Below, one piece after another: positions 498 to 6,473 of a stretch of DNA of 33,310 nt (the stretch's first letter is position 1; every line of letters starts with the position of its first letter). The translations under genes were made by a program, and so were the position numbers. This stretch comes from Acidimicrobiia bacterium. GTDB lineage: Bacteria > Actinomycetota > Acidimicrobiia > Spongiisociales > CAZKJJ01. Under the pieces are notes generated by a model. The model made no database searches and had not been told where the DNA came from. It saw nothing but the letters and a program-made list of their open reading frames with translations. Location: NCBI GenBank assembly GCA_046759765.1, contig JBHICV010000009.1, positions 1-33,310 on the forward strand. The letters run 5' to 3'.

Positions 498-3400
498 GTG
501 GGGCAGCTGAAGATTCAGCTACTCGGCGGCTTCCTCCTGGAGTGGGACGGTCGGCCGATTCCGCCTATCGCCTCCAAGGCGGGGCGGTCCCTCTTCGCCT
601 ATCTCGTCACATATCGCGACCGCGCGCCTACGCGTGACCTCCTCGCTGGCCTCTTCTGGCCGGATCAGCCCGAACCTCGAGCCAGACGGCGGCTGAGCCA
701 AGCGCTCTGGCAGATCCAGAGTGTGCTGTCGCAGGTACCCGCCGAGGAGCCTTTCTTGCTGGTGACCCCGAGCACGATCTCGTTCAACTCCGATGCTTCT
801 TACGTGCTCGATGTGGAAGAGCTGGAGCAAGGATTGGTCGGCTCCGCTGATGAGAGTCCTGACCAGCGGTATCAACAGCTCGAGGCAGCCGTCAGCCTCT
901 ACCGGGGTGACTTCCTCGCCGGTTTCTACGACGACTGGGTGCTGTCGGAGCAGCGCCGAATCAGGGACGAATACCTCACAGGAGTGGAAGAGCTTCTCCA
1001 GCTGGCCAAGAGCAGGGCCCAATTCGAGGAGGCCCTCGGCTTCGCTCACCGCCTAGCTCTCCACGATCCACTGCGTGAGGACTCCCACCAGGAGGTCATG
1101 CGGCTCGCGTACCTGATCGGCCGCTCAACCGAGGCGATCCAGCAGTACGAGCGGCTGCGTTCGATCCTGACCGAGGAGCTCGGCGTCGAGCCGTCCGAGT
1201 CCACCGAGCAGCTATACCGCGAGATTGTCTCTCGAACCGAACGGGGAACTCGCCCCTTCGCGCCGGCACCCGACTCTCCCCTCTTCGACCAGTCCGGCGT
1301 CCCATTCGTCGGGCGGGATACCGAGCGCTCGCAAGTGCTGGCTCGCATGGAGGAGGTCATGGCCGGCCGCGGTGGCCTGGTTTTGCTGGAAGGCGAAAGC
1401 GGGGTAGGGAAGAGCCGACTCCTCACCCAGCTCGCTGATGACGCACATTGGCGAGGTCTGGGTGTTCTCTGGGGCCAGTGCACAGCTACCAGTGCCCCGT
1501 TCGATCCGATTCTCGTCGCGCTGCAACATGAGCTTTCGCCGCTACGAGTACGGCAGCTCGCACAGCGAGTCGAGACCGTTTGGCTTCGTGAAGCATCAGA
1601 GCTGCTACCCCAGATCTCGGAGACACTCCAGGACCTGCCCGAGCGGATCCCTCTGCTTGCCGGGGAGGAGCCGGCCCGTACCAGAGAAGCGATTGCACGG
1701 ATTCTCCTGGGTTTGGGGGAAGTCAACCCGTATCTCGTAGTCATCGATGATCTGCATTGGTCGGATCTCGATTCGCTTCGGCTGATCGAGTCGTTGTCAG
1801 ATCGCCTGCACGCCTCCGGGATAGTTCTATGCCTGAGCTTTAGGAGCGACGACGCCCGCCAGCGAGCACCCGTTTGGGATGTGCTGCGATCGGTGGATGC
1901 CACCGGCGCGGCTCATCGGATCGTCCTGACGCCGCTTTCTGAGGTCGAGACGATCGAACTGGTCCGCCGAAGCCTGGGCGTGCCCACGGTGGCTGACGAA
2001 GCATCTCGGCTCCTATACAAGGACACCGGTGGGAACCCCCTCTTCACGCTGGAGACGCTCCGGGCCCTCCACGACCTCGAGACAACCGACTCGGTCGCTT
2101 ACCTGGCCGGGCAGGGACCGCTGCCCGTCCGCGAGGAGCTGCCCATCGCCAACACCGTGCAGGAGCTAGTGGCAGGACGGCTCGATGCGCTACCGGCATC
2201 CGTGGCAGCAGTCCTCGATACAGCCGCGGTATTCGGCGACCGCCCGGCTCTCGAAGTCCTCGCCGCCACCCCTGGACTACGTACGGTCGACCTTCTGAGC
2301 GCCGTCGACGTGATGATCCGAAGAGGGCTGCTGCGCGAGGTTGAAGGGCACCTCGAGTTCAGCCACGGGCAAGTTCGACGCGTTGCCTACGAGCGCGTGA
2401 GTGCCGCCGAGGCCAGAAAGCTTCATCGGGAGATAGGCGATGCGCTGGAGCGGACTGATTCGGGCACCGCGGGCGAGCGCGCTCATCACTTCGAGAACGG
2501 CCAGGCGTGGGACCAGGCCGTCTCTTACCACCGTCTGGCCGGCCAGGAGGCCGTTTCAGTTCATGCTTACGAGACGGCCGCTGAACATTACGGATCGGCG
2601 TCCGCGCTCGATCAGACCGCCCAAGTGTTGGAGTCTGAGCGCTTCGAGCTGTTGGCCGAGTTCGACGACGTTCTCGACGTCCTGGGTCATCGTCGGCAGC
2701 AGGCGAGCGTACTGGAGGAATTGGCAGAGTTTCCTGTCGAAGGCCCCACGTATTTGATCGATCTCCGACTTCGTCAAGCCCGAGCGTCCGGAGCGACCGG
2801 CGACCTCGACACAGCAGTCGACCTCGCGCAAGTCGCCCTCGACGCCTCCCAAGCGAACGGACTCGTACCAGAGGAGGCGCGTTCTCTGATCGCGGTGGGC
2901 ACCTATTTGGTCTGGGCCGGCCGAGCCGCCGAGGCCATTAGTCCTTTGGAAGAGGCGGTCGCATCCTCTGGAGATGATCGCGCTCGACGCAGTGAGGCCA
3001 GGCACCGGCTGGGAAGCGCTTTCGCTGAGGTGCAGCGCTACGAGGACGCCAAGCGAGTCCTGCGAGTTGCCCTCGAGGACGCCAAAGCCGGCGGCGATCT
3101 TCGGGCCCGTGCGGGCGTACTCGGCACCCTTGCCATCGCCTCTGCCGAGACGGGTGACCCTGAGGGGGCCGAGGCCACCTATGGCGAGACGCTCGCTCTT
3201 TGTCGAAGGATCGGCTATCGGCGCGGGGAAGGGGTCAACCTCGTCAACCTTGCCAACGTTCTCTACTTCCGAGGCCAGATCGGAGATGCGCTGGGCCACT
3301 ACGACGAAGCCTCGGAGATCTTCCGTCAACTAGGTGAGAGACGTGGCGAGGCGACGGTTCTGGCCAACTCCGCCTCAGTGCGGGCGAGCGTCCTAGGTGA

Positions 3401-4325
3401 TTCCGAGCGAGCAGCTGCCGACGCAGATCGAGCCAGGGCCTACTTCAAGGACTCTGGCGATCTACGCGGCGAGGCGCAGTGTCTCGGGATTCTCGCGACG
3501 GCCGAAAGGGTCGAAGGCCATCTCGCCGAAGCGCACGCATTGGCCAATGAGGGAATGGAGGAGGCGGCACAGAGCGGCAACCAGTGGATGAGCGTTCAGC
3601 TTCAGGGAACCAAGGCGAGGCTGCTACTCGATGCCGAAGACCCGGCCGAAGCGCTCGAGCTGGCACGCAAAGCCGTTGCTACCTGCGAACAGCTGGGAAT
3701 GAGCGATCTCGAGGTGAGCCTCAGAGCGATGACCGCCGAAGCGTTACTTGCTCTTGGTCGGATGACGGAGGCGCGCCAAGCGGCGGATCGGGCGGTCCAG
3801 GGTCTCCATCCAGGCGTCGAACGGCCCCATCTGGTCTGGTTCGCTGCCTCGCGAGTGCTTGAAGCCCTCGGCGAAGAGCTGCCGGCACGTGAGGCCCTTT
3901 CCCGGGCAGTGGAGGAGCTCGAGACTTCGCTGAACGGACTGGATCCCACTGACCAGGATCGCGCCCGCGCGGCCGTTCCCGAGCATCGACTGATCGTGGA
4001 GGCCTGGGAGCGCGTCCAGCCGCACCATATCCGCCAGCAAGTGGTAGGCCTGGACACCCCGACGGGCCGCCGACTCGAGGCCGAAGATATGGTCGAAATC
4101 GACTGGACCATGCCGGCACCACCGGCCGGAGGTTGGCGCAGCGAACCCGCTGGCCGGCGCGAGCTTCTCATGTCGCTCATCGAGCAGGCTCGAGCGCAGG
4201 GGGGCTCGCCGACCGTGAACGATCTTGCTCATGCTCTCGGAGTTAGCACCGCGACGGTACGCCGTGATCTGGGGATTTTGAGAGAGGAGGGAAAGAAACC
4301 GATCACGCGCGGCTCCCGCGGGTGA
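498..4325 (+). CDS. SARP-type (wHTH + BTAD) STAND ATPase transcriptional regulator with TPR repeats and a C-terminal HTH (DUF1670/DeoR-like)
   Basis: N-terminal LLGGF...LLAGLFWPD; BTAD LYRGDFLAG...DPLREDSHQEVMR; Walker A GESGVGKS; Walker B VVIDDLHW; GGNPLF; TPR-like units (GEGVNLVNLANVLYFRGQ); C-terminal HTH TVNDLAHALGVSTATVRRDL. Confidence 0.9.
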   Translation: MGQLKIQLLGGFLLEWDGRPIPPIASKAGRSLFAYLVTYRDRAPTRDLLAGLFWPDQPEPRARRRLSQALWQIQSVLSQVPAEEPFLLVTPSTISFNSDASYVLDVEELEQGLVGSADESPDQRYQQLEAAVSLYRGDFLAGFYDDWVLSEQRRIRDEYLTGVEELLQLAKSRAQFEEALGFAHRLALHDPLREDSHQEVMRLAYLIGRSTEAIQQYERLRSILTEELGVEPSESTEQLYREIVSRTERGTRPFAPAPDSPLFDQSGVPFVGRDTERSQVLARMEEVMAGRGGLVLLEGESGVGKSRLLTQLADDAHWRGLGVLWGQCTATSAPFDPILVALQHELSPLRVRQLAQRVETVWLREASELLPQISETLQDLPERIPLLAGEEPARTREAIARILLGLGEVNPYLVVIDDLHWSDLDSLRLIESLSDRLHASGIVLCLSFRSDDARQRAPVWDVLRSVDATGAAHRIVLTPLSEVETIELVRRSLGVPTVADEASRLLYKDTGGNPLFTLETLRALHDLETTDSVAYLAGQGPLPVREELPIANTVQELVAGRLDALPASVAAVLDTAAVFGDRPALEVLAATPGLRTVDLLSAVDVMIRRGLLREVEGHLEFSHGQVRRVAYERVSAAEARKLHREIGDALERTDSGTAGERAHHFENGQAWDQAVSYHRLAGQEAVSVHAYETAAEHYGSASALDQTAQVLESERFELLAEFDDVLDVLGHRRQQASVLEELAEFPVEGPTYLIDLRLRQARASGATGDLDTAVDLAQVALDASQANGLVPEEARSLIAVGTYLVWAGRAAEAISPLEEAVASSGDDRARRSEARHRLGSAFAEVQRYEDAKRVLRVALEDAKAGGDLRARAGVLGTLAIASAETGDPEGAEATYGETLALCRRIGYRRGEGVNLVNLANVLYFRGQIGDALGHYDEASEIFRQLGERRGEATVLANSASVRASVLGDSERAAADADRARAYFKDSGDLRGEAQCLGILATAERVEGHLAEAHALANEGMEEAAQSGNQWMSVQLQGTKARLLLDAEDPAEALELARKAVATCEQLGMSDLEVSLRAMTAEALLALGRMTEARQAADRAVQGLHPGVERPHLVWFAASRVLEALGEELPAREALSRAVEELETSLNGLDPTDQDRARAAVPEHRLIVEAWERVQPHHIRQQVVGLDTPTGRRLEAEDMVEIDWTMPAPPAGGWRSEPAGRRELLMSLIEQARAQGGSPTVNDLAHALGVSTATVRRDLGILREEGKKPITRGSRG

Positions 4326-4355
4326 GCGCGAGGTTCGGACCCAGGGACGGTACTT

Positions 4356-4377
4356 CTGAGACATCTCCGAGACACCT
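4356..4377 (+). promoter_or_regulatory. Two 11-bp direct repeats (CTGAGACATCT / CCGAGACACCT), candidate SARP operator
   Basis: 9/11 identical at one-helical-turn spacing, between the regulator stop and the small ORF; CATGCT (possible -10) at 4384-4389. Confidence 0.5.
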
Positions 4378-4412
4378 CCCTCTCATGCTGAGCGAAGACA
4401 AAGGAGGTTTGG

Positions 4413-4508
4413 TTGCGGAGAGCCGTCACCGTTGCGGTGCTCGTGGCGATCTCGCTGCTGGCTGCTGCTAGCCCGGCGCTTGCTGAGATCACCAACATGC
4501 ACGGTTGA
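4413..4508 (+). CDS. 31-aa secreted pro-peptide MRRAVTVAVLVAISLLAAASPALA|EITNMHG (signal peptide plus predicted heptapeptide)
   Basis: AAAGGAGG at 4400-4407, 5 nt before TTG; in-frame TGA upstream at 4389; n-region RR, hydrophobic h-region, SPALA A-X-A cleavage site; TGA at 4506-4508. Too short for the ORF track. Confidence 0.8.
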   Translation: MRRAVTVAVLVAISLLAAASPALAEITNMHG

Positions 4509-4607
4509 GTGACCCTTCGCCAAACGTCTGCCAGCTAGCCAGGGACAGATCGGTGGTCGTCACCGATCGGTGAAGTAGGCGAGGCTCGAGGGAACCCTCG
4601 CAGAAAC

Positions 4608-4637
4608 GACCGGGCGTGGCCGCTGCCGCGCCCGGTC
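4608..4637 (+). terminator. 13-bp GC-rich hairpin, possible terminator of the peptide transcript
   Basis: GACCGGGCGTGGC-cgct-GCCGCGCCCGGTC (one G-U pair), followed by a weak pyrimidine tract. Confidence 0.5.
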
Positions 4638-4670
4638 CTCTCGTGTGCGACGGCTGATAGCTTTCGCGTC

Positions 4671-6473
4671 ATGATCCGCTTCGGGATCTCAGGCCTGCCT
4701 CCTGAGGGTATGGGCGACTCGGTCTTTCTAGGCGACCTCTCCGAGCGCGGGCACAAGGCCTACGAGCTCGCTTTTGTTACCGAGTTTCCATGGAAGCCCA
4801 AGCGATGCCGAGAGTTCGGCGAGGCGGCGGTTGAACACGACATCTGGCTGTCCGCCCACGCTCCTTACTTTGCTGTTCTGACTCCGGAAGACGAGGACCG
4901 TGCCAAGCAGTGCCGAGCGGCCCTTGAGCACACGATCAAGCTCGGTCGGGAGCTCGGCGCACGAGTCATCGTCGCCCATTTGGGCGCCACTCACGACGAG
5001 ACACCTGAGGCTCTTCTTGATCGGGTCCGCCGGCATCTCGATTGGATCGGCACCAAGGCGGGCCACCTGGGAGTTGGACTCGGTCTCGAAACGGCCGGAA
5101 AGGCCTCGTCGTTCGGCAGCCTCGGCGACATCGCACTTCTCGCCGAGGAGTTTCCCTTCGTACGCCCCGTAGTCGACTGGGCTCACGTCCACGCCATGTC
5201 GGGCGGTGCGCTGACCTCACCGGAAGCGTTCGTAGCCGTTATCGAGTTTCTCCGGGACCAATTCCCCGGCTGGATGATCGATCCACTGCACTGCCAGTTC
5301 ACGGACAACGAGTTCGGTCCTTCGGGTGAGATACGTCATGTTCCCTATGGGACGGGCTCACTAGCGGTCGGACCCCTCGTTCAGGCCGCTCGTGAGACAG
5401 GGCTCAGGATGACGCTCATCTCCGAGGCCCGAGAGGACGAGAGCCACGAAGCGATCGCTCTGGAGCTCGGTGAGGCCGAGGCTTCTGATGAAATTCAGGA
5501 GGGCGAGGGTCGCTTACTCGGATCAGGCCGGATCGAATTTCCGGACCTGATCAGGGTGACCTCCGACGGATCATCGTTCGTAGCGCTCGATCTCGAACGT
5601 CCCCTTGTTCTTTCCAACGTCGACAAGCCCTTCTTCCCTGATGGTTACACCAAGGGCGACCTGATTCAGTTTTATGAATCGATTGCGCCCCTGCTACTGC
5701 CTCATCTCTCCGACCGGGCGATCGTGATGGCACGCTTTCCCGACGGAGCGGAGGGCCACTACTTCTACGAGAAACAGGCCCCAGGACACCAGCCCTCCTG
5801 GATGGTCAAGGCGCCTCTGTATTCCTCCGTGAGATCCGCGCCAATCGAGTTCCTCATGGCACCCGATCGGGAATCGCTCATGTGGTTTGCCAACATGGCC
5901 TGCATCGAGATCCACCCCTGGCTGTCGAAAGTCTCGGCTTCGGATCGTCCTAATTACGCCGTGTTCGATCTCGACCCGGCCGAGGGAGCTACTTGGGAGC
6001 AGGTGGTGTCCGTCGCCCAGCTGGTGCGGGTAGCACTCGAGAACCTCGGCCTCGAGGGCGTGCCCAAGACGTCGGGAGCGTCCGGCATCCACATCTATGT
6101 TCCACTCGAGCCGGAATACGACTATGCACGGGTAAGGGGCTTCGTTGAGGCCACCGGCAGGTTGCTGGCGAAGGCCAATCCCGACGATGTGACTATGGAG
6201 TGGGACATACCGAAGCGGGCAGGCCGGGTCTTCATCGACCACAACCAGAACGTCGCCGGCAAGACCATCGCCTCCGTCTATTCCGTCCGTCCCCTCTCGG
6301 GAGCTCCCGTATCAACCCCGATCCTCTGGGAGGAGCTGGACACGGTGCATCCAGGGGACTTCACCATGGCCACGATCTGGGACCGGGTGCAGCGCTACGG
6401 TGACCTCTTTGCCCCGGCACTGCGCGGCGAGCAACGGCTGGAGGCGGCGGAGCACCGGCTCGGGCTTGCATAA
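4671..6473 (+). CDS. Fusion of endonuclease IV-like (AP endonuclease 2) TIM barrel and LigD-type primase-polymerase (PolDom)
   Basis: N-half has HAPY, HLG, ETAG, DWAH, HCQ, RH and terminal E Zn-ligand-like motifs. C-half has LSNVDKPFFP..YTKGDL, RFPDG, FYEK, EIHPW, FDLDP, KTSGASGIH, FIDHNQN, YSVRP. Confidence 0.88.
   Translation: MIRFGISGLPPEGMGDSVFLGDLSERGHKAYELAFVTEFPWKPKRCREFGEAAVEHDIWLSAHAPYFAVLTPEDEDRAKQCRAALEHTIKLGRELGARVIVAHLGATHDETPEALLDRVRRHLDWIGTKAGHLGVGLGLETAGKASSFGSLGDIALLAEEFPFVRPVVDWAHVHAMSGGALTSPEAFVAVIEFLRDQFPGWMIDPLHCQFTDNEFGPSGEIRHVPYGTGSLAVGPLVQAARETGLRMTLISEAREDESHEAIALELGEAEASDEIQEGEGRLLGSGRIEFPDLIRVTSDGSSFVALDLERPLVLSNVDKPFFPDGYTKGDLIQFYESIAPLLLPHLSDRAIVMARFPDGAEGHYFYEKQAPGHQPSWMVKAPLYSSVRSAPIEFLMAPDRESLMWFANMACIEIHPWLSKVSASDRPNYAVFDLDPAEGATWEQVVSVAQLVRVALENLGLEGVPKTSGASGIHIYVPLEPEYDYARVRGFVEATGRLLAKANPDDVTMEWDIPKRAGRVFIDHNQNVAGKTIASVYSVRPLSGAPVSTPILWEELDTVHPGDFTMATIWDRVQRYGDLFAPALRGEQRLEAAEHRLGLA

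Follow-up and report, generated by a model that had tools for sequence, protein, structure and literature searches.

A conserved regulator and mini-peptide gene pair of Acidimicrobiia as a candidate peptide-signalling module

The window analysed here is a 33,310-nt stretch of DNA from an Acidimicrobiia bacterium (contig JBHICV010000009.1 of assembly GCA_046759765.1), in which the gene of a 1275-residue SARP-STAND-TPR regulator is followed on the same strand by a 31-codon gene for a predicted signal peptide with the short tail EITNMHG. An initial annotation had proposed that the two genes form a peptide-signalling cassette analogous to the RRNPP systems of Bacillota, in which a TPR receptor is paired with a small downstream propeptide gene. 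The observation is confirmed by our comparative analysis, and the pair exemplifies a conserved two-gene module. Judging from sequence comparison, the small gene is conserved, translated, separately promoted and tightly linked to the regulator gene, its product consists of a predicted signal peptide and a short tail, and its promoter carries the operator type of the SARP regulator class. We consider the chances evenly balanced that the pair is a conserved two-gene signalling module of Acidimicrobiia operating as a closed autoinducer loop.

The small gene and its conservation

The regulator stop codon and the TTG start of the small gene are 87 nt apart (Table 1), and the 31-codon open reading frame (ORF), its Shine-Dalgarno (SD) sequence, the TTG start and the EITNMHG tail are all in the sequence where the initial annotation had placed them. 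We retrieved 73 related loci from species-representative genomes with a profile built on 30 relatives of the regulator. The C-terminus and stop codon of the regulator could be located in 53 of the 73, the remainder ending at contig ends. A strict filter for the small ORF (SD sequence, basic n-region, hydrophobic core, A-x-A motif 5‒8 residues from the end, length 25‒40 aa) returned a matching plus-strand ORF just past the regulator in 36 of 52 related loci, and inspection of the 17 filter misses revealed nine more complete ORFs and one interrupted by a contig end. A small ORF of 29‒32 codons was found at the equivalent place in 45 complete copies and one truncated copy among the 53 loci, so that the possibility raised in the initial annotation, that homologs might lack a downstream small ORF, was not borne out. 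SD-like sequences also precede the small ORF in the other loci, and the gap to the regulator is 56‒198 nt, apart from 9 nt in L035, where a frameshift misplaces the regulator stop. The carriers of the two genes are mostly uncultured actinobacteria. The same filter gave no match on the opposite strand of these regions (0/52) or in the rest of the locus sequence (1,319,698 nt, both strands); within the window it passed the small ORF and one unrelated ORF inside a large gene (24796‒24891, minus strand).

Alignment of the small peptides (n = 46) shows an invariant Ala at position −1 (46/46) and a nearly invariant Ala or Val at −3 of the A-x-A site, which is preceded by Pro, Gln or Ser. Upstream of the site lie a basic MRR-type n-region with 1‒3 Lys/Arg residues (mostly 2‒3) and a hydrophobic core with a 10-residue hydropathy of 2.3‒3.5, and a tail of 5‒7 residues follows it. 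By sequence heuristics and conservation, the small peptides carry a predicted Sec/signal peptidase I secretion signal. The ratio of nonsynonymous to synonymous differences (pN/pS) of the small gene is 0.235 (17 pairs), and nucleotide identity is 0.61‒0.94 within the small ORF versus 0.21‒0.46 in the next 90 nt, except in the two closest pairs. These values point to purifying selection on the small gene, which in turn supports its translation.

A profile search of 1.84 billion protein representatives recovered 58 relatives of the small peptide at E ≤ 1e-3, 50 of which are 29‒32 aa long. Six of the eight longer relatives match at their C-terminal end, indicating upstream start calls, and of the remaining two, one has a C-terminal extension and one a longer tail. 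At a G+C content of 64%, short ORFs and translations rich in Ala, Leu and Val are frequent, and the unrelated ORF that passed the strict filter might likewise be taken as a sign that the small gene is an accidental reading frame of GC-rich intergenic DNA. However, since the gene is syntenic in 45 loci plus the truncated one among 53, the controls gave zero matches, pN/pS is low and 58 relatives exist in the library, the comparative data refute this explanation, and we regard its chance as negligible. On the same grounds, the gene is not the stump of a larger secreted protein, a second possibility considered in the initial annotation and one that the relatives, mostly of 29‒32 aa, do not bear out. 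No family was found for the small peptide in Pfam or NCBIfam, the ESM Atlas gave only scores ≤0.81, and Rfam (E ≤ 1) had no match over 4200‒4800. Among ten inspected clusters of relatives, one of the 16 listed members is named, as ‘hypothetical protein’.

The initial annotation had also noted hairpins after the small ORF. Two were located, and the folding z-score of 4506‒4670 is −2.75. Over the 90 nt past the small ORF in 46 loci, the mean folding z-score is −1.54, with values below −2 in 17 loci. A consensus scan of 4100‒4900 yielded no U-tailed terminator; the two hairpins are probable terminators without a U-run.

Promoter, regulator and sensor

The promoter of the small gene was absent from the initial annotation and was found in this analysis. 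It contains a direct repeat with two GAGACA hexamers. A box with at most two mismatches lies 52‒75 nt before the small ORF in 31 of the 45 other loci (no mismatch in 10, one in 11 and two in 10), with an expectation of 0.0027 per 120 nt. When both strands of all 73 loci were scanned, 30 boxes with at most one mismatch were found, and 25 of them sit 19‒89 nt past the regulator stop. Downstream of the box, a CAnnnT element is conserved: 28/32 boxes have A in its second and T in its sixth position at an offset of exactly 9 nt; at other offsets (4 to 14) the same pattern occurs in only 0‒2 of 32 boxes. SARP sites consist of repeats spaced by 11 or 22 bp, and 8 bp separate the 3′ repeat from the −10 element (PMC10936776). 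In the window the −10 element lies 9 nt past the hexamer; with a heptamer as the repeat unit, the distance is 8 nt. At sequence level, the GAGACA box and the −10 element fit the geometry of SARP-dependent promoters and of the afs box of afsS. Consensus scans of 4100‒4900 found no sigma-70 promoter. From this promoter anatomy and the precedent of AfsR, the regulator probably activates the small gene directly. Such activation suits an autoinducer loop and equally an open loop.

Two groups of loci lack the box. L008, L053, L031 and L039 have GAGATA/CAGATA-type variants, as judged by eye, and the other group is a clade with AVVNIR, AVVNMR or AVLNML tails (L004, L005, L015, L016, L022, L029, L034, L044, L049 and L065). 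In seven loci of this clade, another conserved block (..CTGTAGGnTTTT..CGATTCTGCCGATT..CTCC..) lies about 95 nt before the small ORF, and L005, L016 and L022 retain only parts of it. The block suggests an altered DNA specificity of the SARP domain in this clade.

A further element, which often overlaps the regulator stop, was found in 30 of 54 regions, versus 0.0195 expected per region, and in 25/26 cases it lies 22‒24 nt before the repeat box. It may represent a second operator, for example for the C-terminal helix-turn-helix (HTH) of the regulator, which is the most uniform domain of the protein (28/32 clade-conserved columns identical across all clades). The element was also considered as a hairpin or terminator arm and rejected, with a mean z of −0.8 over 25 loci, a window z of +0.46 and a clean hairpin in L041 only.

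The regulator has the domain order SARP (winged HTH and BTAD), STAND/AAA_16 ATPase, arm, about 11 TPR-like helix pairs, a small β-hairpin and a DeoR-type HTH. Pfam assigns BTAD to residues 110‒243, AAA_16 to 269‒439, TPR families including TPR_12 across 767‒1104, and HTH_DeoR to 1233‒1271, and detects no winged HTH in residues 1‒111 even at E ≤ 1. Since the AfsR model NF053617 is aligned by residues 3‒316 (E 3.2e-23) and the AfsR chain 8k60_I by positions 4‒320, at the N-terminus, of the regulator family profile (E 1.9e-36), the N-terminal SARP DNA-binding part is nevertheless supported. The architecture given in the initial annotation for the 1275-residue protein is thereby recovered at the same coordinates, its N-terminus by the AfsR alignments and not by Pfam. 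The Walker A (GESGVGKS) and Walker B (LVVIDDLHWSD) motifs are both intact, and Gly299, Gly302, Gly304, Lys305, Asp418 and Asp423 are invariant among 30 relatives. No membrane-like segment was found in the regulator (0 windows of 19 aa with hydropathy >1.6), which is predicted to be cytoplasmic. Identity to the nearest relatives in the protein collection is only 43%; most relatives are about 1200‒1400 aa long, the shorter entries being partial or truncated.

A structure model of residues 740‒1215, built with 49 sequences, comprises 22 helices followed by a β-hairpin (mean predicted local distance difference test score 94.2, predicted template modelling score 0.87). The nearest solved folds in Foldseek are the TPR domains of LGN/Pins, all of whose crystal structures contain an extended peptide in the inner groove. 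Next in rank are TONSOKU with a histone tail, OGT, and APPBP2 with a degron. The Foldseek matches listed (ranks 1‒50, with repeat chains of listed entries omitted) include no RRNPP receptor. In a comparison of the family profile with structures, NprR (4gpk, 7e-10) and Rap (6t3h/4gyo, ~1e-8) were matched, versus ~1e-39 for LGN-type TPRs, and the matches to NprR and Rap seem to amount to generic TPR likeness. In the model, the sensor is an LGN-type TPR superhelix, a fold of the peptide-binding type. A peptide ligand is plausible because the sensor is of this type, although the fold does not give the identity of the ligand. Two Asn residues located 40 residues apart in A-helices are almost invariant, Asn917 in 49/49 and Asn957 in 48/49 regulators. 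A conserved groove Asn that binds the peptide backbone is a stated hallmark of RRNPP receptors, shared by all of them (PMC4794775 and PMC3601957), and LGN is reported to hold the peptide backbone through the Asn of its Leu-Gly-Asn triplet (PMC3438535).

In a FastTree tree of the 49 regulators, the tail types of the small peptides track the regulator clades. Tails of the AVVNIR, AVVNMR and AVLNML types form one clade of 10, S-x-S-x-M-S tails (e.g. SVSDMS) a clade of 13, x-W/L-x-P-G-H tails a clade of 5, and N-G-x-W-G-x tails together with DIAHMP a clade of 4. The AVVNIR tail is unchanged in seven loci although the end branches of their regulators measure 0.13‒0.41. All four metagenome-assembled genomes (MAGs) with two loci contain two different tails, one of the AVVNI/MR type and one of the NGxWGx/DIAHMP type, and the promoter motifs also differ between the paired systems. 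The match between tails and clades and the two-tail MAGs are consistent with insulated cognate pairs.

Table 1 Features of the regulator and small gene region, in window positions
Feature	Position	Strand	Description
Regulator gene	498‒4325	+	1275-aa ORF; GTG start at 498
Conserved element	4323‒4334	+	TGAGCGCGAGGT; family form TGA-N3-4-[AG][AC]GGT; starts at the regulator stop codon
Predicted SARP-type operator	4355‒4376	+	Tandem 11-nt direct repeat TCTGAGACATC / TCCGAGACACC, from repeat search
GAGACA hexamers	4358‒4363 and 4369‒4374	+	Exact GAGACA-N5-GAGACA, the only one in the window
−10-like hexamer CATGCT	4384‒4389	+	9 nt past the second GAGACA, 23 nt before the start codon
Shine-Dalgarno sequence	4400‒4407	+	AAAGGAGG; 5-nt spacer to TTG; direct reading
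Small gene	4413‒4508	+	TTG start, 31 codons plus stop; product MRRAVTVAVLVAISLLAAASPALAEITNMHG
Predicted Sec signal peptide	4413‒4484	+	MRRAVTVAVLVAISLLAAASPALA
Predicted released tail	4485‒4505	+	EITNMHG, C-terminal end of the small-gene product
Two hairpins	4545‒4642	+	Arms 4545‒4555/4561‒4571; GC-rich 4603‒4620/4625‒4642

The proposed loop and its alternatives

In the proposed closed loop, the cytoplasmic regulator would bind GAGACA-N5-GAGACA over the −35 region and activate the promoter of the small gene. The 31-codon product would be exported by Sec and cut after A-x-A by signal peptidase I, freeing EITNMHG; since there is no pro-region, signal peptidase alone would release the peptide. 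The external peptide would then accumulate, re-enter the cell and bind the concave TPR groove near the two invariant Asn residues. As an inducer, the bound peptide would lift the autoinhibition of the STAND module, resulting in positive feedback of the quorum-sensing type.

Several observations weigh against this loop. The small ORF is absent from seven of the 53 loci (L003, L013 and all five Chloroflexota loci, L025, L041, L061, L064 and L073). All six of these that are represented in the 49-row alignment keep the invariant Asn residues, and the box is retained in L003, L013, L025 and L041, with the upstream motif in L003, L013 and L041. Neither the sensor nor the promoter thus depends on this peptide. 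Asn917 and Asn957 correspond in alignment to the first Asn of the LGN/Pins motif N-L-G-N and not to the triplet Asn, and the residue at the triplet position, Asn920, is conserved in only 30/49 regulators. The match between tails and clades would equally be produced by plain vertical inheritance, and the tails do not differ significantly from the hydrophobic core in divergence (0.194 vs 0.269 differences per site, p = 0.14). Clade-specific conserved columns number 12/75 in the TPR part, 9/99 in SARP and 9/108 in NOD (18/207 for the latter two combined), only a weak enrichment in the TPRs. An oligopeptide importer was found neither in the window nor conserved beside the loci. The regulator of the window is moreover a long branch in the tree (0.93), and its closest relative, in L001 (64% identity), ends before its stop.

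A serious rival, although in our estimate the less likely of the two, is an open loop like that of afsR and afsS, in which the exported peptide is only an output, either a signal to another receptor or organism or an external effector, and the TPR domain senses a different inducer. The conserved SARP box and −10 element make the small gene a probable direct target in this case too, promoter parts recur in four loci without a signal-peptide ORF (L003, L013, L025 and L041), and the gene downstream of the regulator in the Chloroflexota loci L041 and L061 encodes a non-secreted protein of about 70 aa. AfsR likewise activates its small neighbour afsS, and whether an inducer binds the AfsR TPR domain is elusive (PMC10936776). 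On the other hand, a peptide of 5‒7 residues has little plausible role except as a signal. Cognate pairing is the simplest explanation for the strict one-to-one linkage between the peptide and a TPR-bearing regulator and for the two different tails in each of the four two-system MAGs, and no other candidate receptor is conserved nearby.

Two further explanations concern the small product itself. It could remain uncleaved as a membrane microprotein, a 30-aa product that forms a single helix with a tiny outside tail and modulates a membrane or kinase partner. Its core is long enough to span the membrane, judging from the hydropathy given above, and a histidine kinase gene lies directly downstream in nine loci and upstream in one (10/53). 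However, the invariant Ala at −1, the Ala/Val at −3 and the preceding Pro, Gln or Ser are features of signal peptidase I sites that a membrane anchor would not need, seven of the ten kinases have no membrane-like segment, and the window has no kinase here, so that we consider a microprotein improbable. Less probable still is a regulatory upstream ORF or leader peptide that controls the next gene of the window (4671‒6473), an AP-endonuclease/LigD Prim-Pol fusion. While this gene is on the same strand and structured RNA lies between, the downstream gene varies among the loci and is often on the opposite strand, hairpins follow the ORF in many loci, and Rfam, as noted, finds nothing in this region; a leader peptide is very unlikely.

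Variant loci, known systems and meaning

In the Chloroflexota loci L041 (10048‒10326, plus strand) and L061 (9002‒9205, plus strand), a different small ORF, about 70 aa in length, comes after the regulator gene. It has the motif ..F[VL]IRIW[WR]EE..WRGWVQHVxSGE.. and neither a hydrophobic core nor a Pfam family. Its family has 23 relatives of 64‒127 aa, unnamed or called ‘hypothetical protein’. A GAGACA-type box and the TGA..AAGGT element precede this ORF in L041, and neither was detected in L061. In the related Acidimicrobiia loci L003 (7219‒7470) and L013 (7491‒7790), two tandem copies of the promoter module, each with a TGAGCGGAAGGT element and a GAGACA-type box, lie about 170 nt apart. The spacer is highly conserved, one of its frames is a Cys-rich ORF of 33‒47 aa, and it may be either an RNA or a peptide gene. 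Since the peptide-less loci keep promoter parts, a regulator driving a small downstream gene seems to be a wider and older theme, of which the secreted mini-peptide seems to be the Acidimicrobiia version.

Among 92 downstream and 94 upstream neighbour proteins, none proved to be conserved throughout the family, and no conserved importer, protease or modification enzyme was found beside the loci. The adjacent histidine kinases were considered as outside sensors of the peptide, which is ruled out for most loci by the seven of ten without a membrane-like segment; these have a PAS-like cytoplasmic N-terminus. Soluble histidine kinases of 330‒430 aa are part of the neighbourhood in the S-x-S-x-M-S clade; the kinase follows the small ORF in L042, L045, L046, L063, L067 and L069, and in L059 it sits just before the regulator. 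The kinases of this clade consist of HisKA and HATPase_c (only HATPase_c was detected in L069), and a conserved N-terminal region is common to the ones encoded after the small ORF. None has a membrane-like segment, and no response regulator is adjacent.

Within the window, a DUF2905 gene (220‒471, minus strand) diverges from the regulator gene. Because just 26 nt separate the two starts, the promoter of the regulator must overlap the DUF2905 gene, and no GAGACA box was found upstream of the regulator. The 600-aa fusion protein encoded at 4671‒6473 combines a xylose-isomerase-like TIM barrel (AP_endonuc_2, residues 23‒260) with a LigD primase-polymerase (residues 327‒580). DNA-repair genes of the window encode a 5′-3′ exonuclease (10971‒11843), a PolX-PHP polymerase (17486‒19375) and NucS (21012‒21668). 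ATP-dependent DNA ligases are encoded within the first two genes upstream of the regulator in L059, L062 and L068, and a UvrD-HRDC helicase lies downstream in L062 (10423‒13203). DNA-repair genes are thus frequent near the modules, which could reflect chance synteny or hint at the regulon. A PEP-utilising enzyme (22259‒24874) and a PAP2 phosphatase (25305‒26234) have separate ORFs in the window; more distant relatives, about 1250 aa long, combine both domains in a single protein. The best named relatives of the PEP-utilising enzyme (71% and 54% identity) and of the regulator are labelled Acidimicrobiia, in keeping with the origin of the window.

The module resembles the RRNPP systems in that the gene of a cytoplasmic TPR regulator is followed immediately, on the same strand, by a small gene for a Sec-type propeptide. 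In RRNPP systems, the distance between receptor and propeptide genes is −50 to 191 nt, and the published signature comprises a receptor of 250‒500 aa and a propeptide (validated 21‒50 aa, search range 10‒100 aa) with a SignalP secretion signal (PMC10075063). The 87-nt gap of the window is inside this range, and the propeptide measures 31 aa in the window and 29‒32 aa in 45 other loci. The predicted active part is likewise the C-terminal 5‒7 residues, Asn residues are conserved in TPR A-helices, and a single genome can contain more than one system, each with its own peptide. Of the five points of the signature, four are shared (propeptide size, secretion signal by heuristics, TPRs and adjacency) and one, receptor length, is not. 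With 1275 aa, the receptor is far outside the range, and its additional parts are a STAND ATPase, a SARP activator domain and a second HTH. The propeptide lacks a pro-region, LGN-type repeats are the nearest match to the TPR fold, and the module comes from Actinomycetota (class Acidimicrobiia), whereas RRNPP systems come from Bacillota and their phages and plasmids. The analogy drawn in the initial annotation may thus hold for function, but it does not extend to membership, given the receptor length, the STAND ATPase and the different phylum; by analogy, the module would at most work like an RRNPP system.

By its predicted domains, the regulator belongs to the large-SARP/STAND architecture. 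It shares with AfsR the order of SARP, NOD, arm and TPR domains, a predicted operator in which two direct repeats with 11-bp spacing immediately precede a weak −10 element, like the afs box (PMC10936776), and a small target gene adjoining the regulator gene. The NF053617 score is 81.7 bits versus a cut-off of 1430, and hence the regulator is not an AfsR orthologue. The C-terminal DeoR-type HTH is an addition that does not appear in the AfsR architecture given in PMC10936776. In contrast to AfsS, which is a cytoplasmic protein, the target consists of a signal peptide and a short tail, and a candidate ligand of the TPR domain is encoded next door. The combination of an ATPase, an arm and a helical-repeat sensor also occurs in the STAND transcription factors MalT, which responds to maltotriose, and GutR, which responds to glucitol. 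In the general STAND model, inducer binding releases autoinhibition and leads to oligomerisation (PMC10936776). Inducers of the MalT/GutR type are small metabolites, and an encoded, exported peptide would be a new inducer class. Compared with two-component systems such as Agr and Com, whose receptor is a membrane histidine kinase, the exported short peptide and the histidine kinases beside the small gene in some loci are likenesses. In the window, however, the AP-endonuclease/Prim-Pol gene takes the place of a kinase, most of the adjacent kinases have no membrane segments, and the conserved core includes no response regulator.

Peptide signalling through cytoplasmic TPR receptors has been described as a trait of Bacillota, and Actinomycetota are said to rely typically on small molecules made by enzymes (PMC10075063). 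A 2016 review had no reports of quorum sensing for Acidimicrobiia (PMC4748050). The published RRNPP search signature would miss the module because of its receptor length window of 250‒500 aa, and routine annotation would miss the small gene too, as the near absence of named members in the clusters of its relatives illustrates. Our literature search found no description of the module in the literature covered; most subscription journals lie outside that coverage, and an earlier description is possible. We consider, at slightly less than an even chance, that the module represents the first peptide-pheromone system with a STAND-ATPase receptor, in which a hexa- or heptapeptide encoded by the neighbouring gene, exported by Sec and released by signal peptidase alone, switches on the SARP-NOD-TPR activator and sustains self-activating and mutually insulated ‘pherotype’ loops across Acidimicrobiia. 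In large SARPs such as AfsR, whether an inducer binds the TPR sensor remains elusive (PMC10936776). Since the module offers a synthesisable candidate ligand, many peptide-receptor variants and a defined promoter read-out, this question becomes directly testable, and the peptide, if the proposed system is real, would be the first inducer known to act on the TPR sensor of an AfsR-like regulator.

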